A DNA stretch of 64,000 nucleotides from Eubacteriales bacterium (lineage in GTDB: Bacteria > Bacillota > Clostridia > Oscillospirales > CAG-272): the NCBI GenBank assembly GCA_050309735.1, contig JBNRMS010000068.1, positions 24,405-88,404 of the forward strand, in the 5' to 3' direction. This document shows, piece after piece, positions 3,259 through 54,861 of this stretch (positions are counted from its first letter, which is position 1; the number at the start of each line of letters is the position of its first letter). The position numbers were made by a program, and so were the translations under genes. The notes beneath the pieces were generated by a model, which worked only from the letters and a program-made list of their open reading frames with translations, was not told the DNA's origin and ran no database searches.

Positions 3259-3334
3259 CGGGGTGTGGCGCAGTTGGTAGCGCGCGACGTTTGGGACCAA
3301 GATGCCGCAGGTTCAAGTCCTGTCGTCCCGACCA
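3259..3334 (+). tRNA. tRNA-Pro (anticodon UGG) with encoded CCA; the anticodon stem is largely unpaired (possible pseudo-tRNA)
   Basis: 76 nt. Acceptor CGGGGTG/CGTCCCG pairs, with two G-U pairs. D arm is GCGC-AGTTGGTA-GCGC. T arm is GCAGG-TTCAAGT-CCTGT, followed by ACCA. The anticodon loop is TTTGGGA. The anticodon stem CGACG/CCAAG pairs only at its two terminal positions. Confidence 0.7.
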
Positions 3335-8963: not shown

Positions 8964-10844
8964 TTAATCAAACTGAGAATTGTATAGCGAGCTGTAAAAG
9001 CCTTCTTGCGCCATCAGTTCCTCGTGGTTTCCCTGCTCTATCACGTTTCCGTCCTTGACGACAAGAATTATATCTGCGTTCTGTATCGTTGAGAGCCGGT
9101 GCGCAATCACAAAGCAGGTGCGCCCCTTCATCAGCGAGCGCATTGCCTCCTGAATCTTAATCTCTGTGCGCGAGTCGACATTCGAGGTCGCCTCGTCAAG
9201 AATGAGCATAGACGATTTCGGAAGCATCGCGCGGGCTATCGTTATAAGCTGCTTTTGACCCTTTGAGATGTTGATTCCGTCGTCTGTCAGAAGAGTGTCG
9301 TATTGGTCGGGGAGAGACTCGATAAAGGAATGAATTTTAGCCGCCTTTGCCGCGGCGACTACCTCCTCCATCGTCGCATCCTCCTTGCCGTAGGTGATGT
9401 TCTCATATATTGTACCGCCAAAAAGCCATGTGTCCTGAAGCACCATTGTATAGGAGGTTCTCAGGCTCTCGCGCGTCAGATTGCGGATTTCCTTTCGGTC
9501 AACCGTAATCCTGCCTGCGTCAACGTCGTAAAAACGCATGAGCAGGTTAATTATTGTCGTCTTACCCGCGCCGGTCGGCCCGACAATGGCAACGGTGCTT
9601 CCCGGCTTTGCTTCAATCGATAGGTCGTGAAGTATGATTTTATCAGGGTTGTAACCAAATTTGACATGCTCAAGTCCGACCAGTCCCTTTACATTCTCAA
9701 GCACCTCCGAGCCGGTATATCCGGCGTTTGAAGGGCGCTCGGCGCTGACCTGGTCCTCATCCTTCTCGTCGATAATGCGGAAAACCCGCTCGGCGGCGGC
9801 AATGGCCGACTGGAGTTCGCTCAGGATATTGGCAAACTCATTTATCGGGCCGGCAAATCTGCGCGAATACTGCACAAAGGACGACACGCCGCCCAGAGTT
9901 ATAAAGAAAAGCGAGGACGCACCGATACTTCCCGCCTGCGAGAGCATAAAGAAAATGCCGCCGAAAATAGTCACAAGGGCGATTGAAAGATTGTTGATAA
10001 AGTTAACGCCCGGGCCAATTATCGCCCCTTGGTAGTCGGCCTTAAAATAGGCGTCGACCGCCTCCTTGTTTCGCGCGTTAAAGCGCCCTGAGATTACCTC
10101 CTCCCGACCGTAAACCTTAATACTTCTCTGACCCGAGAGCATCTCCTCGGCATAGCCGTTGAGCATCCCGAGCTTCATCGACCGATATTTGAACAGCGGT
10201 CTTATTTTTTTTGTCTTGTATCTTGTAAACATAATCGAAATCGGCACCGTGACAACAAAAATCAAGATAAGCGCGGGTGATATTGTTATCATCATGATAA
10301 GCGAGCCGACAACCCTTATGACACTCGCACAGACCTGAAGAAGGTCGTGCGAGAGCGATGCGTTTACCGTATCAACATCATACGAAATATGGCTGATAAT
10401 TTCGCCTGTTTGATGTGTGTCGAAATAGCTGACCGGCAACTCGGTCAACCGGTCGAAAATCTGCTTTCGCATCCGATATATTATCTTCTGCCCCAAGCGA
10501 ATCATTATAATGGCAAGTATGTATGAGAGAATAGCCGATATTGTGTAGAAGGCAAGCATCAACCCGCAGTAATAATAGACCCTCTCAAAGTCAACCGCGC
10601 CCCGGCCAAGTTCAATGGCGTCAATCGCCTTTCCCGAGAGCTTAGGTCCTACAAGCGAGAGGAGATTTGAAATGATCATGAGCGAGAATGCAAGGAGAAC
10701 AAGCCATTTATGCCTTGCCATATATCCGGCGAGCCGCATGAGTATTTTTGACTTTGTCTGTTTATCGATTTTCTGATCTTGGCTCGCGCTGTTGAGCGAG
10801 CGCGAGCGCCCCATCCCACCGCCACCGCCGCCGCCCGAGAACAT
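8964..10844 (-). CDS. ABC exporter, fused permease/ATPase (heterodimer partner B)
   Basis: Six-helix TMD plus NBD with Walker A GPTGAGKTT, signature ISKGQKQ and Walker B LILDEATS. The start is uncertain: ATG 10844 (MFSGGGGGGGMGR) or an upstream TTG. The track start at 10904 would overlap the upstream gene. Confidence 0.9.
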   Translation of the reverse strand: MFSGGGGGGGMGRSRSLNSASQDQKIDKQTKSKILMRLAGYMARHKWLVLLAFSLMIISNLLSLVGPKLSGKAIDAIELGRGAVDFERVYYYCGLMLAFYTISAILSYILAIIMIRLGQKIIYRMRKQIFDRLTELPVSYFDTHQTGEIISHISYDVDTVNASLSHDLLQVCASVIRVVGSLIMMITISPALILIFVVTVPISIMFTRYKTKKIRPLFKYRSMKLGMLNGYAEEMLSGQRSIKVYGREEVISGRFNARNKEAVDAYFKADYQGAIIGPGVNFINNLSIALVTIFGGIFFMLSQAGSIGASSLFFITLGGVSSFVQYSRRFAGPINEFANILSELQSAIAAAERVFRIIDEKDEDQVSAERPSNAGYTGSEVLENVKGLVGLEHVKFGYNPDKIILHDLSIEAKPGSTVAIVGPTGAGKTTIINLLMRFYDVDAGRITVDRKEIRNLTRESLRTSYTMVLQDTWLFGGTIYENITYGKEDATMEEVVAAAKAAKIHSFIESLPDQYDTLLTDDGINISKGQKQLITIARAMLPKSSMLILDEATSNVDSRTEIKIQEAMRSLMKGRTCFVIAHRLSTIQNADIILVVKDGNVIEQGNHEELMAQEGFYSSLYNSQFD

Positions 10845-27153: not shown

Positions 27154-27912
27154 TCAGTTAATCATTTCCCCGCGCAAAAATTCAAGTATCTTTTTTTCCT
27201 CGCGCGAAACCTTGACCTGGCTCAGGCCGAGCCTGTCTGCCGTCTCTTGCTGTGTGAGATTTCGATAATATCTCAGCAGTACAATTCGGCGCCAGAGCGG
27301 CTGCATTTTTGAGATAGACTGCGAGAGGGCAATGCTGTCCGAGAGGCGCTCGATTTCGTTATCCTCATCTGCTATTGTGTTCTCAAGTGTCATCCCCTCG
27401 TCGCCGAACACTGTGTCGGAGAGAGAGGCAACCGGGCTCATCGCATCAAGCGCAACCGCCGCTTCCTCGATACTGACATCGCAGAGAGCTGCCAGCTCGC
27501 CAATGCGCGGCTCTCTTCCCTCCTCGGAAATAATCCGGCTTCGCTCGCGCATTAAGACTATTCCAATTTTCTTATAGTTCCGGCTTATTTTAATAATTCC
27601 CGCATCGCGCAAGTGCCGCCGTATCTCCCCGATAATGAGCGGAACGGCATAGGTCGAGAAGGCGGTTCCCCTTGTCATATCAAAGGAGTGAATCGCCTTT
27701 ATCATGCCTATCATTCCTATTTGGATCAAATCTTCAATCTCGGTTCCCCTGTCGCGAAAGCGCACAGCAATGCTCCGAACAAGCCCGCCGTTAAGCTCGA
27801 CAAGCCTCTCGGCCGCCTCTTCATCTCCGAGCTGCGCCCTCTCTATCAGTTCCCGGTTTTGCGAATAAATATCCTGCTCCTCAGCCGCATTTCCCATTTC
27901 AGCCTCCGACAT
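27154..27912 (-). CDS. sigF: Sporulation sigma factor SigF
   Basis: 252-aa sigma-70 family protein. It is the third gene of a spoIIAA-spoIIAB-sigma operon. Region 2/3/4 motifs are present (DLIQIGMIGMIKAIHSFD, LTQQETADRLGLSQVKVSREEKKIL). Confidence 0.9.
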   Translation of the reverse strand: MSEAEMGNAAEEQDIYSQNRELIERAQLGDEEAAERLVELNGGLVRSIAVRFRDRGTEIEDLIQIGMIGMIKAIHSFDMTRGTAFSTYAVPLIIGEIRRHLRDAGIIKISRNYKKIGIVLMRERSRIISEEGREPRIGELAALCDVSIEEAAVALDAMSPVASLSDTVFGDEGMTLENTIADEDNEIERLSDSIALSQSISKMQPLWRRIVLLRYYRNLTQQETADRLGLSQVKVSREEKKILEFLRGEMIN

Positions 27913-27923
27913 CAGTTTGGTTT

Positions 27924-28391
27924 TTATGTAATGACCTCGCCTCTGCCGGCAAATCGTTTATACATAATCACGTTTGTTCCCCGCCCCTCCTTTGAGCTGA
28001 CCCTGAGCTTGTCCATAAAACTCTCCATAACCGTAAAGCCCATTCCGCTCCGCTCGCCGGTTGAATCGGTGGTATAGAGGGGTTGGCGCGCGGTTTTGAC
28101 ATCGGGAATGCCGCACCCGCGGTCGCGCACCTCAAGCTTTATGCTGTTTCCTTCGAGGATCTTCATTGTTATGTATATCGGGCCGACGCAGTCGCGATAG
28201 GCATGGACGATACAGTTGGTGACCGCCTCTGACACCGCACATTTAACGTCGGCAAGTTCGGAGGCTGCCGGGTCAAGCTGCGCACAAAAAGCGGCTGCCG
28301 CCGCGCGCGCCATGCCCTCGTTAACCGACAGCGACGGTAAAACCAGTCGCATTTCATTTTTTACAACCGATGAAAAGCCTTTATTTTTCAT
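27924..28391 (-). CDS. spoIIAB: Anti-sigma F factor (serine protein kinase)
   Basis: GHKL kinase motifs EAVTNCIVHAY and VRDRGCGIP...GMGFTVM. I chose the ATG at 28391 (MKNKGFSSVVKNEMRL), which overlaps the spoIIAA end by 11 nt. The track start at 28451 is an upstream extension. Confidence 0.9.
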   Translation of the reverse strand: MKNKGFSSVVKNEMRLVLPSLSVNEGMARAAAAAFCAQLDPAASELADVKCAVSEAVTNCIVHAYRDCVGPIYITMKILEGNSIKLEVRDRGCGIPDVKTARQPLYTTDSTGERSGMGFTVMESFMDKLRVSSKEGRGTNVIMYKRFAGRGEVIT

Positions 28392-28731
28392 TTTTGACTT
28401 CCCCCTTAGTTTTCTCAACAGCAATAATTCTGCGAATTCCCGCAAGCTCAAGTATCCTTGATATTGGCTCTGTCGGGTCGAGTATAACCATCACTCCCCC
28501 AAGCTCACGCATGAGCGAATACCTGCCCATAATAAGCCCGAGCCCCGAGCTGTCCATAAATCCAACCGCCGACAGGTCAAACAACAATCTTACCGGCCTT
28601 ATTTTATATAGGAGCGTGTCAATGTCGGCGCGCAAGCCCGCCGCGCTGTGGTGATCTATTTCCCCGCAGAGCCGCAAATGCAGCACGCCCTCGTTATATT
28701 CATACGAAAATCCACTGTTGCTCTTTATCAT
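28381..28731 (-). CDS. spoIIAA: Anti-sigma F factor antagonist (STAS domain)
   Basis: 116 aa. DLSAVGFMDSSGLGLIMGRY contains the phosphorylatable Ser of the DSSG motif. It is the first gene of the operon. Confidence 0.9.
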   Translation of the reverse strand: MIKSNSGFSYEYNEGVLHLRLCGEIDHHSAAGLRADIDTLLYKIRPVRLLFDLSAVGFMDSSGLGLIMGRYSLMRELGGVMVILDPTEPISRILELAGIRRIIAVEKTKGEVKNEK

Positions 28732-34975: not shown

Positions 34976-35002
34976 GCCGCCGCGTGAGTTCCACGCGGCG
35001 GC
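34976..35002 (-). terminator. Intrinsic terminator of the tail-fibre-like gene
   Basis: The minus strand reads GCCGCCGCGTG-gaact-CACGCGGCGGC followed by ATTTTGTTGTTC. Confidence 0.8.
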
Positions 35003-35025: not shown

Positions 35026-37824
35026 CTATTGCTCTGCCCGTACAAAGGCTGACAGGGCGGCCGCTATTTTCGAGGCATCTTCGATTACGGATGGGTCGGA
35101 CGAGGTGGCAAGCCCGAGCGCCGAGAAGAGAGCGAGAATTTTTTTGCGATCGCTCTCTATCTGGCGGGGATAGTCGGGCCGGTATTTTATTTTCGAGCGA
35201 AGGCCGAGCGCAGCTTTGACATATTTCCCGGTAGCGCTGTCATATCTCAGAATGCGCTCGACCCCGCCGGTTGCAACCCGATAGGCGGCGGGCTCTATGA
35301 TATTTGTCACCGCGGGCGAGGCTAACTCATAATAAACCTTCACGCCGCTGACCGGCTTTGAAAGTGTCAGATAAATTCCGTTTACGCTGCCGATATTCCC
35401 CGATGCAGAGAGATATACTGTCCCGTTTTTTGCACCCTCAAGCTGCACCACATCGCCGCTCGAACCGCTGACAGTCATAACACCAACGCGACGGCAGAGT
35501 TTGCCGCTATCAAAGTCAAGCGTGTCGCAAATCCCACCAGGCAGGCGGCACATCTCATAATTCTGCGTGAATAACAGGCTCGAATCAAGCTCGTTTGTCT
35601 CGCCTCCGGTGCTGTTAAGTCCTCCGACAATAGCATTTGTCTGCCCCTTTGGGTGATAAACCCCGCCGATAATTTTTTCGATTTCGGCGGCGGGAAGCTC
35701 ATCCATACCCAGATAGGTCAGGTCGTAGACAGCCAGTCTCCGCATACTGATGACCTCCTCGGTCATCGTAAGGTTTACAGTGATTTTCGCACCGGGAGAC
35801 GGAAGGTTTACCACCGTTCCCGAGAAGCCGTATTCTGACAGCTCTGCCGGCTCACTTGAGCCGGGCAGTGTCCAACCGGCTCCCGACACATATGTGAGCA
35901 CATAGCTGCCGCTCGCAGCATTATAGCCGAGCGCTCCGGCAAATTTCACAGGATCAAGCACAGGATTGATAATTCCTATAATCCCGTATGTGGTATAGAT
36001 TGCAGAGGGGGTTCTTCCATATGGAAAGGTAAAATCAATATTTATCTCCGAGTTTGCCCTCAGAGCCTCGTTCGACGTGCTGAACACAACTTCAATCCCA
36101 TAGTTTGTCAAGTTGACAAGTTCCCCGACTCCATCTACCCTCCAACCGTAGTTATAGACAAAACGGTATTTGCCGTTCCACAGAGGAGAGAAGGCAGCGA
36201 TTTTATTAGAGAAAAGCACGGGATTCACCGTCACACTCGAAATATATCCCGAGTGGGAGGCCGCCGCTACAATCTGGCGCTTGTCCCACAGACCGACCGC
36301 CCCTTCTCCGTTAGTAGACGAGGTTATAATGCCCGAGACGCGCTGCCAGTCGTCTGTTGCACATGATTCGATATAATGCACACCTCCTCCGCCCCCGTCT
36401 GCGAAAAGGACGACGCCCGGTGCGGTCGTCGGTTTTTTTATTTCACCCTCAATATAGTATTTGTGTCCTGCGGTAAAAGAGACAGCGCGCATAATTTTTG
36501 CCGGAACGGCCTCGGCCGCCGTCGGCTGGTAGACCTCAATTGTAAAGGAATCAATCTCAAAATCATCCTCATAAACTGTTATTACAACAGCTCCGACTTC
36601 AAGACCTTCTATATCCCACCCTTCCCCGTCATATCTTTCAACAATATCTACTATCCCCGGCACGCTCGCCTCGCAATATTGCAGGCCTGTGTCATAACCG
36701 TCGACCTCGACGACGCCCCCGATTTGAATCAAATAATCGGCGTCTGATTCGACAATTTCCGGCGCGGGGGGAGGATTGAGGGTTATCGAGCCTGTGCCGC
36801 TCCAAACCTCAAATTCCCCTCCCTCGAATGACCAGCCCGAGGCGTCGGCAAAATTTCCGTTGTCAAGCAGCTGAACCACACTCATCCCCTCAAGCTCGAC
36901 AAGCTCAGCCGATGCCAGCTCTATGCCCTCCTCACCCGAGGCGCTGGTCCGCTCAAAGAGGATATCCTCAACCTCAATTTCTCTCACCGGGGACAGGTTG
37001 TCGGCCGCCCCGGCGATAAGATCTGCCGCCCGACCCGAGGCCGGGGCGTAGGTTTCGGCGTGGTTGTGCGAGATTGGCGCATAGGTGCCTGTGTGGTTGT
37101 GGGAAGCAGGTGCATATGCGCCTGTATGACTGTGTGTGAGAGGCGCATATGTACCCGCATGGCTGTGAGAGACCGGCGCATAAGTGCCTGTATGGTTGTG
37201 CAAGACATCGGCCTTGCCCGCCAGCGCAGCATGCACCCCTCCCGATGCCACCGCGCGCCCGCTGCCCGCAGTCGGAGCGGCATCTATTGCCGGCTTGTTT
37301 TTTATGTAATCGAGCGCCCGGCTGTCTGCCTGCGACCAGTCAGACTGCACATTTAACTGAGCACCCGACTCAATGCCCGCAAGCTTTGCTTTTTCCTCGT
37401 TTGTATAATCGTTTGAGGACAAACCCTTTCCCTCAGCGACATTCACCTTTCCGAGAAGAGCCGTCATGATCTGAGAGGCTTGGCTCGGAGTTGGAACAAG
37501 TGCCTCGTTTTCTGTCGGAACGCTCGTGTCAAGCACCCGCACAAGCCCCTCGGCGCTTATCAGCACCCGCTCGCCGCAATAGCCGCTCACCACAAACCTG
37601 CTTGTCCCCCCGACATTCATAACCTCCGCGGGGATGTTGATAGGCTCGCCGCCATATAGAATCGAGACCGCCTCTCCCTCGGGCGGGTAAAAGCTCACGG
37701 TTACCGCAAGCCCTTCCCACTCCTCACTAAGGACAAAATCAAGTTTTTCTATTCCGTAGCTCCCCCGCGTCCCCGCGACAAACCTTGCCGGATTCAAAAC
37801 ATATCTGTCAACTTTAATTATCAT
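35026..37824 (-). CDS. Phage tail-fibre / receptor-binding-protein-like protein (orphan)
   Basis: 932 aa from the ATG at 37824, which lies 8 nt after AAAGG. Tail-fibre motifs GLSSNDYTNEEKAKLAGIESGAQ and DWSQADSRALDYIKNKP are present, along with five 11-aa HxH(T/A)GxYAPxS repeats. CBM-like (LLDNGNFADASGWSFEGGEFEV) and Ig-like segments follow. It has its own extended -10 promoter and its own terminator. Confidence 0.8.
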   Translation of the reverse strand: MIIKVDRYVLNPARFVAGTRGSYGIEKLDFVLSEEWEGLAVTVSFYPPEGEAVSILYGGEPINIPAEVMNVGGTSRFVVSGYCGERVLISAEGLVRVLDTSVPTENEALVPTPSQASQIMTALLGKVNVAEGKGLSSNDYTNEEKAKLAGIESGAQLNVQSDWSQADSRALDYIKNKPAIDAAPTAGSGRAVASGGVHAALAGKADVLHNHTGTYAPVSHSHAGTYAPLTHSHTGAYAPASHNHTGTYAPISHNHAETYAPASGRAADLIAGAADNLSPVREIEVEDILFERTSASGEEGIELASAELVELEGMSVVQLLDNGNFADASGWSFEGGEFEVWSGTGSITLNPPPAPEIVESDADYLIQIGGVVEVDGYDTGLQYCEASVPGIVDIVERYDGEGWDIEGLEVGAVVITVYEDDFEIDSFTIEVYQPTAAEAVPAKIMRAVSFTAGHKYYIEGEIKKPTTAPGVVLFADGGGGGVHYIESCATDDWQRVSGIITSSTNGEGAVGLWDKRQIVAAASHSGYISSVTVNPVLFSNKIAAFSPLWNGKYRFVYNYGWRVDGVGELVNLTNYGIEVVFSTSNEALRANSEINIDFTFPYGRTPSAIYTTYGIIGIINPVLDPVKFAGALGYNAASGSYVLTYVSGAGWTLPGSSEPAELSEYGFSGTVVNLPSPGAKITVNLTMTEEVISMRRLAVYDLTYLGMDELPAAEIEKIIGGVYHPKGQTNAIVGGLNSTGGETNELDSSLLFTQNYEMCRLPGGICDTLDFDSGKLCRRVGVMTVSGSSGDVVQLEGAKNGTVYLSASGNIGSVNGIYLTLSKPVSGVKVYYELASPAVTNIIEPAAYRVATGGVERILRYDSATGKYVKAALGLRSKIKYRPDYPRQIESDRKKILALFSALGLATSSDPSVIEDASKIAAALSAFVRAEQ
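37039..37200 (-). repeat. Five tandem 33-bp (11-aa) HxH repeats inside the tail-fibre-like gene
   Basis: HNHTGTYAPVS / HSHAGTYAPLT / HSHTGAYAPAS / HNHTGTYAPIS / HNHAETYAPAS (residues ~214-267 of the track ORF). Confidence 0.85.
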
Positions 37825-37916
37825 GTCTTTGCCTTTCAAAGGCGCTTTCTGTTATCCCGCGTAAATTATATCAAAGCACCCTCTCTTGTGACTGACATCT
37901 TTATGTCAGCACAACT

Positions 37917-45327: not shown

Positions 45328-46974
45328 ATGGACTATAATTATCTTGCGGAGCTGCTTTTTCCGAATGTCACGGCAACTCCAGACGATATGGAAAAAAAAT
45401 ATCCCCCGCGACGCCTGCCCGAGGGGGCGGTTGTCTCGCGTCATGCCCCAAGCCCCACAGGATTTGTGCATTTGGGCAATATCGTACAAAGTCTTACCTC
45501 CGAGCGCCTCTGCCATCAGTCCGGAGGGGTGGTGTATCTGCGAATAGAGGACACCGACAATAAACGCGAGGTCAAGGGCGCGGTCGGCTCGCTTATTGAA
45601 TCGCTCGCTCATTACCGAATAGTTTTTGATGAGGGCGCAGTCTCGGACGGAGATTGCGGCAACTACGGCCCCTATCGACAACGCGCCCGGCGCGACATTT
45701 ACCATGTTTTCGCAAAATTGCTTGTTCAAAACGGCTATGCCTACCCCTGCTTCTGCACCGAAGAGGAGCTGAATGAAATCCGGGAAAAACAGAAATCGCT
45801 CAAAATAAATTTCGGATACTGGGGCGAGTGGGCGCAATGGCGCGACAAACCGATAGACGATATCAAAAGAGCGCTTGCCGCCGGTGTTCCGTGGGTTCTC
45901 CGCTTCCGCTCGCAGGGCAGCATCCAGAATAAATTTAAGTTCACAGACCTGATAAAGGGAGTTATTGACGTAACAGAAAACGATCAGGATATAGTACTTC
46001 TCAAGTCGGACGGCATTCCGACCTACCATCTCGCGCACGTCATCGACGACCACCTGATGCGTACCACTCACGTCATTCGAGGTGACGAATGGCTGCCCTC
46101 GCTGCCGATTCACCTGCAGCTCTTTGCCGCCTTCGGCTGGAAGCTTCCGAAATATGCACACATCGGCCCCTTGATGAAGATGGATGGCAGCTCAAAACGC
46201 AAGATTTCAAAGCGCAAAGACCCCGAATTTGGACTTGTTTACTACAAGAAGCAAGGTTATCCCGTCGCGTCGGTCTACGAATATGTGCTCACCGTTCTCA
46301 ATTCCAACTTCGAGGACTGGCGCAGAGCAAATCCAACGGCTCCCGCCTCCTCCTTCCCCTTCTCGCTCAAGAAAATGAATCCCGCAGGCTCACTCTTTGA
46401 CGCCGCAAAGCTGGGCGACATCTCAAAAAACCTGCTCGCAACAATGAGCGCCGAGGCCGTTTACGACGGGCTTTACGCATGGGCGGCAGAATTTGAGCCG
46501 ACCTTCGCCGCATTTCTCGCCGCCGACCCCGACTATGCAAAAGCGATAATCGGAATCGGTCGCGGCGGCAAGAAACCCCGCAAGGATTACGGAACATGGG
46601 TTGAGCTGAGGAATTATATGTCCTTCTTCTACGACAACAGCTTCACAATTCAAGACCCCTATCCCGAAACATTTGACAAGGCCGATATAAGAGCAGCGCT
46701 CTCATCCTTCCTTCAGAGCTATAGCCCCGCCGACGACCAGAGCACTTGGTTTGGCAAGATAAAATCAATAGCCGGCTCGATTGGATATGCCGCCGAAATG
46801 AAAGATTATAAGGCAAATCCAGAAGCATACCGCGGAAGCGTCGCCGACGTGAGTATGTTCCTGCGCGTCGCGCTCACCGGACGGCTCAACTCACCCGATA
46901 TGTACAGTGTTATGCAAATACTCGGGGAGAGACGCGTCAGAGGGCGAGTGGAGGCAATGCTGAGTAAGATGTGA
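45328..46974 (+). CDS. gltX: Glutamate--tRNA ligase (long form)
   Basis: Class I motifs: PSPTGFVHLGN is HIGH-like and KISKRK is KMSKS-like. DGIPTYHLAHVIDDHLM is also present. 548 aa. Confidence 0.85.
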   Translation: MDYNYLAELLFPNVTATPDDMEKKYPPRRLPEGAVVSRHAPSPTGFVHLGNIVQSLTSERLCHQSGGVVYLRIEDTDNKREVKGAVGSLIESLAHYRIVFDEGAVSDGDCGNYGPYRQRARRDIYHVFAKLLVQNGYAYPCFCTEEELNEIREKQKSLKINFGYWGEWAQWRDKPIDDIKRALAAGVPWVLRFRSQGSIQNKFKFTDLIKGVIDVTENDQDIVLLKSDGIPTYHLAHVIDDHLMRTTHVIRGDEWLPSLPIHLQLFAAFGWKLPKYAHIGPLMKMDGSSKRKISKRKDPEFGLVYYKKQGYPVASVYEYVLTVLNSNFEDWRRANPTAPASSFPFSLKKMNPAGSLFDAAKLGDISKNLLATMSAEAVYDGLYAWAAEFEPTFAAFLAADPDYAKAIIGIGRGGKKPRKDYGTWVELRNYMSFFYDNSFTIQDPYPETFDKADIRAALSSFLQSYSPADDQSTWFGKIKSIAGSIGYAAEMKDYKANPEAYRGSVADVSMFLRVALTGRLNSPDMYSVMQILGERRVRGRVEAMLSKM

Positions 46975-47044: not shown

Positions 47045-48688
47045 ATGGACGAAAAGAACAGCAACTTCATACACGATATAATCGACGCCGATCTTGCGGC
47101 AAATCCCGATCTTAAAATTCACACCCGCTTCCCCCCCGAGCCTAACGGGTATCTACACATCGGGCACTGCAAGGCGCTTGTCATCGACTTTGGAACCGCC
47201 GAAAAGTACGGCGGCCTCTGCAACCTCCGCATGGACGACACAAATCCCGCCAAAGAGGATTCGGAATTTGTCGATGCCATAATGGAGGATATCCACTGGC
47301 TGGGCTTTGACTGGGGAGACCGCTTTTTCTACGGCTCGGACTATTTCGAGACTACCTATCAGCTCGCCGAAAAGCTGATAAACGAAGGACACGCCTATGT
47401 ATGCGAGCTTAGCCCCGAGCAGTTCCGCGACTACCGCGGCGACCTCTCACGCCCCGCCATATCACCATACCGCGACCGGCCGGCCGCCGAAAGCCTTGAT
47501 CTTTTTCGGCGCATGAGAGCGGGCGAGTTTCCCGAAGGGCGCTACACACTCCGCGCAAAAATCGACCTTGCCTCGGGCAACTTTAATATGCGCGACCCGG
47601 TGCTCTACCGCATCCGCTATATCGACCACCACCGGCAGGGCAATAAATGGTGCATCTACCCGATGTACGACTTCGCCCACCCGATTCAAGATGCAATCGA
47701 GGGCATTACTCACAGTCTTTGCTCACTCGAATACGAGGATCACAGGCCGCTCTATAACTGGGTTATCGAGCGCGTTGAGCTGCCCTCCACCCCGCGGCAG
47801 ATTGAATTCTCAAGACTGAATATTTCAAACACGGTTCTGTCAAAGCGCTATCTGCGCCATTTAGTAGAGATGGGCGTGGTAGACGGCTGGGACGACCCGC
47901 GCATGCCCACCCTCTGCGGCCTGCGCCGCCGGGGCTACACACCCGCGTCAATCCTTGACTTTATTGAGCGCATAGGTGTGGCAAAGTCGAATAGCTTGGT
48001 TGATATTGGCCTCCTTGAGCATTGCCTGCGCGAGGATTTAAACCGTAACGCTCCCCGCCGTGTCGCAGTCCTAAACCCGATAAAACTGATAATCGAAAAC
48101 TATCCCGAGGATAAAAAAGAATATTTCGACCTGCCAAACAATCCGCAAAACCCCGAGGCAGGAACCCGCCCCCTCGCCTTCACACGCGAACTCTATATAG
48201 AAGCCGACGACTTCGCCGAGAACCCGCCCCCGAAATTCTTCAGGCTCAAGCCGGGCGGCGAGGTTAGACTGATGGGCTCTTATATAATCAAGTGCAACAG
48301 TATCGACAAAAATCCCGATGGCAGCATAGCCGCCATCCGCTGCACCGCAGACCTTGAGACCGGATGCAAAACTCCCGCCGACGGCAGAAAGATCAAGGGA
48401 ACAGTCCACTGGCTCTCGGCCAAAGACGCCCTGCCGCTCACCGTTATGTACTACGACAAACTCTTTACAATCGAGAATGTCGGCGAGGTGGGCGAGGAAT
48501 TTATGAGTTATCTTAATCCCGATTCGCTCATAGAGCTCAAGAGCTGCTTTGCAGAACCGTCGCTTAAAGATGCTGCACCCGGCGAGAAATTTCAGTTTGT
48601 CCGAAACGGATATTTCTGTGTCGACACCAAAAACCCCGCTGTGTTTAACCGAATAGTCGGCCTCAAAGACAGCTACCCGAAAAGATAA
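47045..48688 (+). CDS. glnS: Glutamine--tRNA ligase
   Basis: RFPPEPNGYLHIGH, CIYPMYDFAHPIQDAIEGITHSLC and VLSKR. 547 aa. Confidence 0.93.
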   Translation: MDEKNSNFIHDIIDADLAANPDLKIHTRFPPEPNGYLHIGHCKALVIDFGTAEKYGGLCNLRMDDTNPAKEDSEFVDAIMEDIHWLGFDWGDRFFYGSDYFETTYQLAEKLINEGHAYVCELSPEQFRDYRGDLSRPAISPYRDRPAAESLDLFRRMRAGEFPEGRYTLRAKIDLASGNFNMRDPVLYRIRYIDHHRQGNKWCIYPMYDFAHPIQDAIEGITHSLCSLEYEDHRPLYNWVIERVELPSTPRQIEFSRLNISNTVLSKRYLRHLVEMGVVDGWDDPRMPTLCGLRRRGYTPASILDFIERIGVAKSNSLVDIGLLEHCLREDLNRNAPRRVAVLNPIKLIIENYPEDKKEYFDLPNNPQNPEAGTRPLAFTRELYIEADDFAENPPPKFFRLKPGGEVRLMGSYIIKCNSIDKNPDGSIAAIRCTADLETGCKTPADGRKIKGTVHWLSAKDALPLTVMYYDKLFTIENVGEVGEEFMSYLNPDSLIELKSCFAEPSLKDAAPGEKFQFVRNGYFCVDTKNPAVFNRIVGLKDSYPKR

Positions 48689-49165: not shown

Positions 49166-49855
49166 ATGGAAAAGCATAAACTTGACCGAATAAACGAACT
49201 GACGCGAATCTCGCGCGAGCGCCCGCTCACCGAGGCAGAAACACTCGAGAGAAGCGCTCTGAGGACCGAATATATCCGCGAGTACCGCGCCGCGATGACG
49301 GGCATACTTGATAACTCGGTCATTGTCCGCCCGGACGGAACGCGAGAGAGCGTCAGAGAACGCAAAAAAACTATATGGCAGGAACATTTTAATCTGCCTT
49401 TACCAAAGGCAACAGAAGGCGTCGAGGAAACCGAGCAGCTCGGCAAAACCCTTGCAAAAGCCCTCACAGACGATCCCTCCCTTCCCCGCTTCGTCGCGCT
49501 TTACGGTGAGCTCGGCGCCGGCAAAACCGCCTTTGTGCGTGGATTTGCCGCTCAAATCTCACCCGGGGCGAGAGTGAAATCGCCAACCTTCACGCTTGTA
49601 AACGAATATCCGGCCTCGCCCACCCCTCTTTTCCACTTTGATATGTACCGGATAAAGAGCGAGGACGAGCTCTATTCAACAGGATTTTATGATTACCACA
49701 AGCGCCGGGGTTTCATGCTCACCGAGTGGAGCGAAAACATCCCCTTCGCCCTGCCCGAGCGCTATATCGAGGTTAAAATAAATAAGGACACCTCCTCGCC
49801 CGACCGCCGAGCAGTCTTAATCAAGCTAATTGAAAAAAAGGATTCGACCACATGA
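49166..49855 (+). CDS. tsaE: Fusion of a DUF896 (YnzC-like) N-terminal domain with tRNA t6A protein TsaE
   Basis: Residues 1-~70 (KLDRINELTRISRERPLTEAETLERSALRTEYIREYRAAMTGILDNSVIVRPDG) match the DUF896 pattern. The remainder has TsaE motifs GELGAGKTAFVRGFA, SPTFTLVNEY and HFDMYR. It is one continuous ORF and overlaps tsaB by 4 nt. Confidence 0.85.
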   Translation: MEKHKLDRINELTRISRERPLTEAETLERSALRTEYIREYRAAMTGILDNSVIVRPDGTRESVRERKKTIWQEHFNLPLPKATEGVEETEQLGKTLAKALTDDPSLPRFVALYGELGAGKTAFVRGFAAQISPGARVKSPTFTLVNEYPASPTPLFHFDMYRIKSEDELYSTGFYDYHKRRGFMLTEWSENIPFALPERYIEVKINKDTSSPDRRAVLIKLIEKKDSTT

Positions 49856-53449: not shown

Positions 53450-54136
53450 TCACAACTCCTCAACCGAATAAACTCCTTTTATATCCGAGATATGCTGGAG
53501 GACCTCGGGGCGTTTTTTCTTAAGACTTATTTGAATCACAAAGATAGCGCCCATAATAGGCCCCTCGGCGGCTTTTGAGCGGGTTATTTCAATATCGGTG
53601 ATAACAACGCCCAGCTTTTTTATCTCTGCGGCAATTTCAGCAAGGCTCTCGGTCTCGTCAAATTCAACAAATATATTAAGATTTTTAGCTTTTGAGGATA
53701 TGTACCACTCAAGCTTTGAAAGAAGTATTTCGGCTATCAGAACAAGTACGGTCGCAATAATTCCGGCCTCGACATAGCCTACGCCTATCGCAAGTCCGAT
53801 TATGGCAGAAACCCAAAGACCGGCGGCAGTTGTAAGCCCCTTGACCTGACGGCGACGAGTGACAATAATCGTTCCGGCGCCGATAAATCCAATGCCCGTG
53901 ACCACCTGAGCGCCAAGGCGTGCAGGGTCGGTTGACCAACCGCTGACAACCAAATAATGGCTGGTCAGGGTAGTGAGAGCCGCTCCAAGACAAACGAGCG
54001 TGTGCGTTCGATATCCGGCGGGGCGGCGCTTATGCTCGCGCTCAATTCCGATAACCCCTCCGCAGATAACCGACAAAACAATGCGCAGGATCACAGAAAA
54101 TGTCGAAAATTCTCTTATGCTTTCAAAAATATCCAT
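53450..54136 (-). CDS. MgtC/SapB family protein
   Basis: GGVIGIEREHKRRPAGYRTHTLVCLGAAL, four to five TM helices and a C-terminal ACT-like domain. Confidence 0.85.
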   Translation of the reverse strand: MDIFESIREFSTFSVILRIVLSVICGGVIGIEREHKRRPAGYRTHTLVCLGAALTTLTSHYLVVSGWSTDPARLGAQVVTGIGFIGAGTIIVTRRRQVKGLTTAAGLWVSAIIGLAIGVGYVEAGIIATVLVLIAEILLSKLEWYISSKAKNLNIFVEFDETESLAEIAAEIKKLGVVITDIEITRSKAAEGPIMGAIFVIQISLKKKRPEVLQHISDIKGVYSVEEL

Positions 54137-54150
54137 CTTCCCGCTCCTCC

Positions 54151-54861
54151 TTATATTTCTTCAAGAGCGCGGACACTCCGAATGTCGGCAAGCTTTGTCA
54201 GAATATCAGCGTGCGGCATTTTGCTCGGAAGCTGCATTGAAAAGATAACACTGGCATATACACCGCTGCTGGGATTATCCTTGTTTATCTCAAAATCATA
54301 AATTCTGATTCGGTCTGCCTTGATGATTTCAATAATTGTACTGATATCGTCAATATCCGAAACCTCAATATAAAGATTCATATTTCGCGCTCTTTGCATT
54401 ATCAGGCTCTCAACCCTGCGCATAATGGTGACCGAGAAAAATATCATAAAGCAAGCAGATATGGCGCCAAGATAAAATCCCGCGCCAATAGCAAGCCCCA
54501 TGCAGGCTGACGCCCAAAGCCCTGCTGCCGTTGTCAGCCCTTTTATCTCCTGACGGCTGGTGACAATAATCGTTCCCGCGCCGAGAAATCCTATCCCGCT
54601 TATCACCTGCGCGCCGAAGCGCGATACGTCGGTTGTAATATTTATTTTGTTGGTAATAAGAAAACCAAAAACATACTGGCCTATCAGCATAGTGAGCGCC
54701 GCGCCCATGGCGACAAGCATATGCGTTCTAAATCCCGCCGGACGGCGCCGCCGTCCGCGGTCAAGGCCGATAATTCCTCCGCAGAAAATTGCGAATACCA
54801 GCCTTACTACTGTTGTTATTATGCCCGGCTCTCGGAGCCCGGCTGCTAAATTATATGGCAT
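54151..54861 (-). CDS. MgtC/SapB family protein (tandem paralog)
   Basis: GGIIGLDRGRRRRPAGFRTHMLVAMGAAL. The architecture matches the downstream paralog. Confidence 0.85.
   Translation of the reverse strand: MPYNLAAGLREPGIITTVVRLVFAIFCGGIIGLDRGRRRRPAGFRTHMLVAMGAALTMLIGQYVFGFLITNKINITTDVSRFGAQVISGIGFLGAGTIIVTSRQEIKGLTTAAGLWASACMGLAIGAGFYLGAISACFMIFFSVTIMRRVESLIMQRARNMNLYIEVSDIDDISTIIEIIKADRIRIYDFEINKDNPSSGVYASVIFSMQLPSKMPHADILTKLADIRSVRALEEI

Follow-up and report, generated by a model that had tools for sequence, protein, structure and literature searches.

A phage-derived orphan tail-fibre gene of uncultured Clostridia and the promoter it shares with orphan holin cassettes

How does a phage tail-fibre gene come to stand by itself in a bacterial chromosome, and what might it do there? 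The question is raised by a 64,000-nucleotide stretch of DNA (the window) from a Clostridia genome (Eubacteriales bacterium, assembly GCA_050309735.1, contig JBNRMS010000068.1), in which a gene for a 932-residue tail-fibre-like protein (35026-37824, minus strand) lies directly downstream of the sporulation genes gpr and spoIIP. The original prediction, read from the letters of the DNA, took it for an isolated, intact fibre gene that had been domesticated, for example as a cell-surface or spore-surface adhesin. The gene is of phage origin, is maintained under purifying selection at loci outside any prophage, and is preceded by a conserved promoter that also stands before orphan holin cassettes of related genomes. 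The reading that we prefer, with a probability of roughly 0.45, is that the gene encodes a peripheral-baseplate fibre of the BppU/FibU/FibL class, exapted from a siphophage, long inherited vertically in uncultured Clostridia and now part of a fibre and holin regulon that descends from phage late genes and is controlled by the host.

The open reading frame (ORF) listing of the window gives the gene as 35026-37839 on the minus strand, with 937 residues counted from a TTG. The ATG at 37824 yields 932 residues and matches the start (MIIKV...) of all orthologues, and the in-frame TTG, 15 nt upstream of this ATG, overlaps the ribosome-binding site; the stop codon occupies 35026-35028. The motifs that had marked the product as a tail fibre are all present in the shaft region (residues 126-262; 37039-37449): GLSSNDYTxEEKxKL starts at residue 134, the DWSQxD..DYIKNKP pair has DWSQ at residue 162 and DYIKNKP at residue 172, and five HxH repeats with a period of 11 residues follow at residues 209, 220, 231, 242 and 253. 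The HxH stretch corresponds in the DNA to 4.5 copies of a 33-nt tandem repeat (37061-37207), and the copy number differs among orthologues. Regularly spaced HxH metal-binding repeats in a trimeric shaft are known from T4 gp37 and P2-type fibres. In an exhaustive HMMER search of 1.8 billion representative proteins, 7014 match at E<=1e-3, nearly all of them to residues 102-260 only and usually over several repeated stretches; the motifs are no chance occurrence. The same region, and no other part of the protein, has a weak match (E 3e-7) to a PHROGs family annotated 'tail protein'. The whole protein matches no Pfam family at E<=0.1, including BppU_N and any carbohydrate-binding module (CBM), its N-terminal domain (N-domain) searched separately has no Pfam match either, and neither the whole protein nor the N-domain matches a PDB sequence.

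The N-domain (residues 1-105; 37510-37824) points more directly to the source. An AlphaFold2 (AF2) model of residues 1-125 has a predicted local distance difference test score (pLDDT) of 83, rising above 90 for residues 1-100. Its best Foldseek matches in the PDB are chains AM/AN (FibU) and AK/AJ (FibL) of phage 80alpha (6v8i), chains P/Q of NF5 (9m8o) and BppU of TP901-1 (4v96_AA), with probabilities of 0.77-1.0, E values of 2e-4 to 1e-2 and template modelling (TM) scores of 0.35-0.53. By this model the domain has the immunoglobulin (Ig)-like N-terminal fold of BppU, the match being moderate, not strong. In 6v8i, the four chains correspond to the BppU-like, Ig-like N-terminal domains of FibU (upper) and FibL (lower), the fibres of Staphylococcus aureus phage 80alpha, and these domains build rings at the periphery, with the fibres projecting from them (PMC7048315).

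When the N-domain was used in a word-index search for homologues, close fragments alone were returned. Homologues with 32-47% identity occur at the N-termini of tail proteins in IMG/VR contigs (L053-L057). In two of these (L054 and L057), the gene for the N-domain protein is placed after genes for the tape-measure protein (TMP), Dit and minor-tail proteins; L053, which holds the closest phage N-domain, has it at the head of a collagen-like tail-fibre protein and also contains an endolysin gene. The structural matches, the occurrence of N-domain homologues in phage tail modules and the motifs common to more than 7000 proteins together establish that the fibre gene is of phage origin.

The likeness to FibU (gp68) and FibL (gp62) of Staphylococcus phage 80alpha and to BppU of Lactococcus phage TP901-1 extends from the N-terminal Ig-like fold to the modular plan of N-terminal domain, fibrous shaft and variable C-terminal binding part; the collagen-like shaft of FibU is also found in relatives of the window protein (L053, L091 and P0179). 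Unlike those phage proteins, the window protein has no Pfam BppU_N match, its shaft is made of GLSxNDYT motifs and HxH repeats, and its C-terminal 670 residues are unique to an orphan family: among the HMMER representatives, homologues of this part amount to six 50%-identity clusters plus fragments, all within that small family, and IMG/VR yielded no full-length or C-terminal homologue. The gene also differs in being controlled by its own regulated promoter and in lying neither downstream of TMP, Dit and Tal genes in a tail operon nor in any phage.

If the gene came from a phage, it might be no more than what a decayed prophage has left behind, as its origin would allow. Full-length relatives with 27-61% identity were found in 13 other loci, from metagenome-assembled genomes labelled Eubacteriales or Clostridiales bacterium and from gut and digester metagenomes. 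None of the 13 lies in a prophage; all are orphans in chromosomal contexts. The orphan status proposed for the window gene is likewise borne out, as Pfam detects no phage family (portal, terminase, capsid, tape-measure, baseplate or integrase) in the 47 ORFs scanned around it, from 10.8 to 60.2 kb; the families matched are housekeeping, transport and regulatory only, and a few small ORFs have no match. Codon usage of the fibre gene correlates with that of the other window genes (r=0.92), and its GC content and third-position GC content (GC3) are also typical of the window.

Downstream of the fibre gene follows a row of AP_endonuc_2, F420-ligase-like, Metallophos, glmM and GFO_IDH_MocA genes and then spoIIAA-spoIIAB-sigF. 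In L001 and L007-L010, the fibre gene stands directly upstream of the same AP_endonuc_2 gene; the order AP_endonuc_2, F420-ligase-like, Metallophos, glmM is kept in these loci down to 27% fibre identity, and L007 retains the whole row. Identities of the neighbouring proteins (50-85%) scale with those of the fibre (27-57%), in line with vertical descent of a faster-evolving gene.

The ratio of nonsynonymous to synonymous substitution rates (dN/dS, omega) is 0.20-0.21 overall in unsaturated pairs, so that the check for purifying selection called for by the original prediction has a positive outcome. The N-domain is the most constrained part (58-77% identity, omega 0.10-0.17), and in the C-terminal parts identity is 23-55% and omega 0.15-0.27. 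The shaft is expendable: a clade of ~810-residue proteins (P0008, P0010) has lost it, and in P0006 it is expanded. Intactness, which had been claimed for the window gene, extends to its orthologues with one reservation: 13 of the 14 loci have an intact gene, and in L006 a single frameshift at 10222 (frame 2 to frame 1, residues 702/703) interrupts it on a contig with only 2.5x coverage, so that the break may stem from the assembly or mark a true pseudogene. That frameshift and the phage origin are what an inert remnant of a decayed prophage could claim for itself. Such a remnant would show phage neighbours, atypical composition, widespread pseudogenes or relaxed selection, and none of these features is found; every domain has a dN/dS of about 0.2, synteny persists down to 27% identity, the promoter is conserved and codon usage is ameliorated. 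The remnant is therefore strongly disfavoured and the least probable of all the explanations considered here. Because all orthologues are orphans, all but one are intact, selection is purifying, codon usage is host-like, and synteny and promoter are kept, domestication of the gene, as opposed to prophage decay, is supported.

The next issue is whether the gene was domesticated for sporulation. The two upstream neighbours are what they were taken to be, SpoIIP (E 4e-54) and Gpr/Peptidase_A25 (E 2e-67). On the other side, an operon of spoIIAA (STAS), spoIIAB (HATPase_c_2) and sigF is located at 27154-28731 on the minus strand, 6.3 kb downstream of the fibre gene. A fibre that the mother cell produces and places on the spore, or a cell-surface fibre tied to sporulation, would suit both neighbourhoods, and mother-cell synthesis would explain the missing signal peptide; a related fibre gene in L014 also lies between spoIIA and spoIIE, and in the window no terminator was found between spoIIP and the fibre gene, so that read-through from spoIIP is possible in this genome. 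Against this, the expectation that relatives would always carry the gene next to spoIIP failed: the adjacency to spoIIP and gpr exists in this window and in none of the 13 orthologous loci, which have no linkage to sporulation genes. The upstream genes of the relatives vary (cpsB-wzz-cpsD, serpin, GFO_IDH_MocA, Peptidase_S15 or DUF6528), and because they differ in this way the adjacency is a local rearrangement. The closeness of both the window and L014 fibre genes to spoIIA or spoIIE may be a coincidence in spore-formers. In four of the relatives (L001, L002, L004 and L006), the same conserved group of genes adjoins the fibre gene on its upstream side: the tyrosine-kinase capsule regulators cpsB-wzz-cpsD, a serpin and a GFO_IDH_MocA oxidoreductase.

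The promoter is equally adverse to a role in sporulation. On the minus strand, an 18-bp palindrome, CTGACA-N6-TGTCAG (37892-37909), is followed after exactly 21 nt by TATAAT (37865-37870), which is part of an extended -10 element TGaTATAAT (37865-37873), after a further ~6-8 nt by the leader GGGATAACAGAAAGCGCC (37841-37858), at or near the predicted transcription start, and then by the ribosome-binding site GAAAGG (37832-37837), 7 nt before the ATG. The extended -10 element had been seen in the original prediction and placed some nucleotides too close to the gene, at about 37855; the ribosome-binding site had been given there as AAAGG. Palindrome, TATAAT and the GGGATAAC leader are kept in all 13 orthologous loci whatever gene lies upstream, with a spacing of 21-22 nt between palindrome and -10; in the orthologue alignment, GAAAGG is conserved and GGAT(A/G)AC within the leader is invariant, and neither the 21 nt between palindrome and -10 nor any -35 element is conserved.

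The palindrome had earlier been read as a hairpin after spoIIP. It has no T-run, and because it is conserved before every orthologue regardless of the upstream gene, it belongs to the fibre promoter and not to spoIIP. A genuine intrinsic terminator closes the monocistronic unit on the other side, at 34976-35002 on the minus strand, where a 12-bp stem with 10 GC pairs is followed by the T-run ATTTTGTTGT, as had been predicted. The suggested check for promoter motifs of the sigma-E, sigma-G or sigma-K type turned up the conserved TATAAT and palindrome instead: the alignment contains no conserved CATA-type -10 element of sigma-E, sigma-K, sigma-G or sigma-F, and the promoter looks like an activator-dependent sigma-A type, not a sporulation-sigma type. 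As the partners that share this promoter are holins, not coat genes, a sporulation-linked fibre is very improbable, and the spore-surface role first suggested finds no footing.

If transcription is assumed to start 6-7 nt after the -10 element, the palindrome would be centred near -42, the geometry of a class II activator site, and the putative activator or operator site in this position suggests that the promoter depends on an activator. The palindrome does not seem to fit the operators of Spo0A, TnrA/GlnR, CRP/FNR, LexA or Rex, nor the DnaA box; it appears to resemble CRP/FNR-type class II sites only in its 5-6-5 geometry and its -42 position.

The invariant GGAT(A/G)AC motif occurs at the same position in L001-L013, L060, L068, L078 and L081, and is common to orphan fibres and orphan holin cassettes. 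Candidate roles are those of a further site for protein binding or of a signal in the initial transcript. A riboswitch or attenuator in the leader was considered and dropped, as the comparison with Rfam was empty and RNAalifold gives no conserved fold.

What else this promoter controls was seen in a metagenome scan with the promoter pattern, which gave 33 hits, the L001 orthologue among them. Three further N-domain fibre genes lie behind the same promoter (L060, L087 and L091); Pfam finds a collagen-like repeat in L091, and the L087 translation shows a similar GEKGD repeat. Four hits are two-gene cassettes with the GGATAAC leader and without an endolysin (L062, L068, L078 and L081). One of the two genes encodes a small protein that combines a transmembrane segment with a coiled coil (phrog_1863, E 6e-15, or phrog_1009; weakly XhlA-like) and the other a holin (phrog_297, E 1.6e-8), which has a homologue in phage contig L053. 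Like the fibre genes, the cassettes are orphans, flanked by housekeeping genes (PFOR, HtpG, GHMP kinase and transporters). The fibre locus L060 and the holin locus L078 come from one assembly, have similar coverage and GC content and agree exactly in operator and leader, so that a single genome is their probable source.

A related arrangement is seen in L014, whose fibre gene (P0179) is a chromosomal orphan between recA-recX, spoIIAA-AB-sigF and ksgA-spoIIE. P0179 has only the N-domain in common with the window protein, followed by collagen-like and other modules. Its promoter has the palindrome with the same fixed spacing of 21-22 nt to the -10 (palindrome, 21 nt, TATTAT), and the fibre gene is followed by a Holin_SPP1 gene and a gene for a small transmembrane protein. 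Fibre and holin are thus adjacent in L014, and the identical operator and leader of L060 and L078 point to co-regulation. In the window, no such holin was found: tblastn with the holin-cassette proteins gave no match, and the palindrome has no second exact copy.

Both kinds of cargo, fibre and holin, are late genes of phages, and the palindrome recurs in phages themselves. A refined pattern, CTGACR-N-AWA-NN-YGTCAG, 21 nt before TATAAT, is present in two IMG/VR phage groups, whereas chance would make about 1 in 128 hits to the simple pattern fit the refined one. This raises the possibility of a phage-triggered defence or decoy, in which the palindrome would be a phage late promoter and fibre and holin would stay silent until an infecting phage brings its late activator; the fibre would then poison or retarget the baseplates of the progeny while the holin lyses the cell early. 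The position of the palindrome in one of the two groups, just upstream of terS/terL, fits this scheme. The full promoter with its GGATAAC leader is, however, absent from IMG/VR, where the -10 with this leader gives chance hits inside genes only; the candidate phage activator, a 118-residue protein encoded beside the palindrome, has no relatives outside its own phage group; and the N-domain evolves slowly and by vertical descent, contrary to the prediction of an arms race with phages. We consider such a decoy rather unlikely, though not as improbable as a fibre for the spore.

The two phage loci are arranged as follows. In an abundant gut phage (L023 1817-1900; also L018, L028, L031, L033, L035, L039, L042, L047, L063, L064 and others), ACTGACACAAAATTGTCAG, 21 nt and TATAAT lie at the 3' end of the ORF for the 118-residue protein, an intrinsic-terminator hairpin comes right after TATAAT, and terS/terL follow, at the early/late boundary; the layout looks like a late promoter set on the terminator of an early operon. 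The 118-residue protein was rejected as the activator, as it also lacks any PHROG or Pfam match. In the second group (L051 3583-3625), two adjacent palindrome copies, CTGACACATATGTGTCAG and TGACACATACGAGTCAG, are intergenic and precede a gene for a 194-residue protein, after which come a holin-like membrane protein and an endolysin-like protein, both candidates identified by reading the sequence.

Under the preferred reading of an exapted fibre in a host-controlled regulon, the steps would be these. The fibre gene would be transcribed alone from its sigma-A-type promoter, which has a good -10 element, no -35 element and the palindrome near -42, and so probably needs an activator. The same promoter and leader on orphan holin cassettes and other orphan fibres of related genomes would make up a small phage-late-like regulon under host control. 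The 932-residue protein has no signal peptide or transmembrane segment (its N-terminus is not hydrophobic, and the highest 19-residue Kyte-Doolittle window is 1.43), and a trimer would be assembled in the cytoplasm. For a protein of this kind, a holin or lysis would be the natural way out of the cell: a co-regulated holin might permeabilise or lyse the cell, perhaps in a subpopulation only, and the fibre would be released or exposed. Outside the cell, the C-terminal domains would bind polysaccharide.

The last step rests on the model of the C-terminal part. In the full-length AF2 model, residues 330-720 have pLDDT values of 80-90 and show an apparent jelly-roll, into which an Ig-like domain is inserted, and after it two repeats of ~90 residues each. 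The jelly-roll with its insertion (residues 313-530; 36235-36888), in which NGNFADASGWSFEGGEFEV lies at residue 322, has invariant G, W and N residues; Foldseek comparisons with CBM4, CBM6, CBM22 and CBM70 give probabilities of 0.9-1.0 with TM scores (target) of only 0.33-0.41 and high root-mean-square deviations, owing to the use of the whole multidomain model as query. The CBM-like and Ig-like segments of the original prediction are thus plausible by model, the CBM part being held back by these scores and by the missing Pfam match. The two beta-rich tandem repeats (residues 531-715; 35680-36234) are confidently modelled, are seen in the translation and the orthologue alignment, and have no homologues outside the family by HMMER; the protein ends in a predicted C-terminal beta domain and a terminal helical hairpin (residues 716-932; 35029-35679), apparent from model and alignment. 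The C-terminal part would probably be carbohydrate-binding, and in view of the holin co-regulation and the CBM-like domains a surface or extracellular role is plausible.

A precedent for such release exists in Clostridia, where two reports describe holin-dependent release of large proteins without signal peptides, namely clostridial toxins (PMC9527704, PMC12150058). Measured against TcdE and related holins of type 10 secretion, the resemblance is that of a large signal-peptide-less protein apparently linked to or co-regulated with a phage-type holin at a non-phage locus in Clostridia, as in L014. The cargo here differs in being a tail fibre, not a toxin, and the holins are of other families (Holin_SPP1, phrog_297); in the window the holin is not adjacent, and neither a TcdR-like sigma factor nor a remnant of an endolysin was seen.

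A released fibre might act alone or on a tail. As contacts of the two fibre rings of 80alpha, FibL and FibU, with Dit or the major tail protein are few (PMC7048315), it is conceivable by analogy that the window protein acts alone through self-assembly of its N-domain. Alternatively, the fibre could be supplied in trans to a tail-like particle specified elsewhere, be it an F-type tailocin, a gene transfer agent (GTA) or a resident prophage, with the N-domain docking on its baseplate and the fibre and holin loci serving as satellites. The Rhodobacter capsulatus GTA (RcGTA) provides the pattern: separate tail-fibre, head-spike and lysis genes are co-regulated with its core cluster, and GafA binds the promoters of the RcGTA cluster and of a lysis cassette (PMC6363796). 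The loci described here resemble those accessory loci in that phage-derived fibre and lysis genes lie away from any phage and are apparently co-regulated, here through a common promoter. They differ in that no head-tail cluster or dedicated activator was seen in the 64-kb window or the flanks of 14 loci, in the Gram-positive Clostridia host, in the lack of an endolysin in the holin cassettes and in an unrelated promoter motif. F-type tailocins also exist in Gram-positive bacteria, and tailocins are parts of siphophage tails that have been domesticated and bear receptor-binding fibres (PMC11830787); their tube, tape-measure, Dit and Tal genes stand together in contiguous clusters, and the window has none of these genes.

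A trans-acting fibre would also account for the N-domain, whose structural relatives build baseplate rings, being the most conserved region, although this conservation could mirror self-assembly, given the few ring contacts in 80alpha. No tail genes were found within ~25 kb of the window gene or within 10 kb in 14 other loci, and none of the approximately ten relevant promoter hits precedes a tail or capsid cluster. A trans-acting fibre is on balance unlikely, though it is the strongest competitor of the exapted, host-controlled fibre.

Several observations weigh against the latter as well. The N-domain is the best-conserved part of the protein, as expected if it still docks on a conserved tail; activator dependence is deduced from promoter geometry only; the CBM assignment is weak; and, with neither a holin cassette nor a second palindrome in the window, co-regulation in this genome is extrapolated from relatives.

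Some features of the window lie outside this argument. A tRNA gene at 3259-3334 on the plus strand (Rfam, 42.8 bits) is given by ARAGORN a four-base anticodon, 'ggga', and no amino acid, and may have an unusual anticodon loop or be a prediction artefact. Two adjoining plus-strand genes (45328-46974 and 47045-48688) encode class I aminoacyl-tRNA synthetases of the Glu/Gln type, one GluRS-like (Anticodon_2) and one GlnRS-like (tRNA-synt_1c_C and C2). At 49166-49855 on the plus strand, one ORF fuses an N-terminal DUF896 to a TsaE domain, and MgtC-family genes form a tandem duplicate on the minus strand (53450-54136 and 54151-54861).

Most of what is known of domesticated phage parts such as tailocins, GTAs and holin-based secretion concerns contiguous clusters or comes from a small number of model species. 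Here, a lone tail-fibre gene survives under purifying selection across a family-level lineage, with a promoter signature that also marks lone holin cassettes; the case shows that adjacency to sporulation genes can mislead. The wider proposal that we draw from it is tentative, somewhat less probable than the reading of the single gene: a dispersed, vertically inherited regulon of uncultured Clostridia would have arisen from phage late genes, uniting orphan BppU-type fibres with a conserved N-domain and swappable C-terminal binding parts and endolysin-less holin cassettes under one activator-dependent promoter, and would represent either a new way of secreting a self-assembling phage fibre by means of holins or the dispersed accessory loci of an unrecognised Gram-positive tailocin or GTA. 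The promoter signature offers a searchable handle by which the whole regulon could be traced in complete genomes and its regulator sought, and by which export of fibres through holins as adhesins or lectins might be told from service to an unrecognised tail-like particle.

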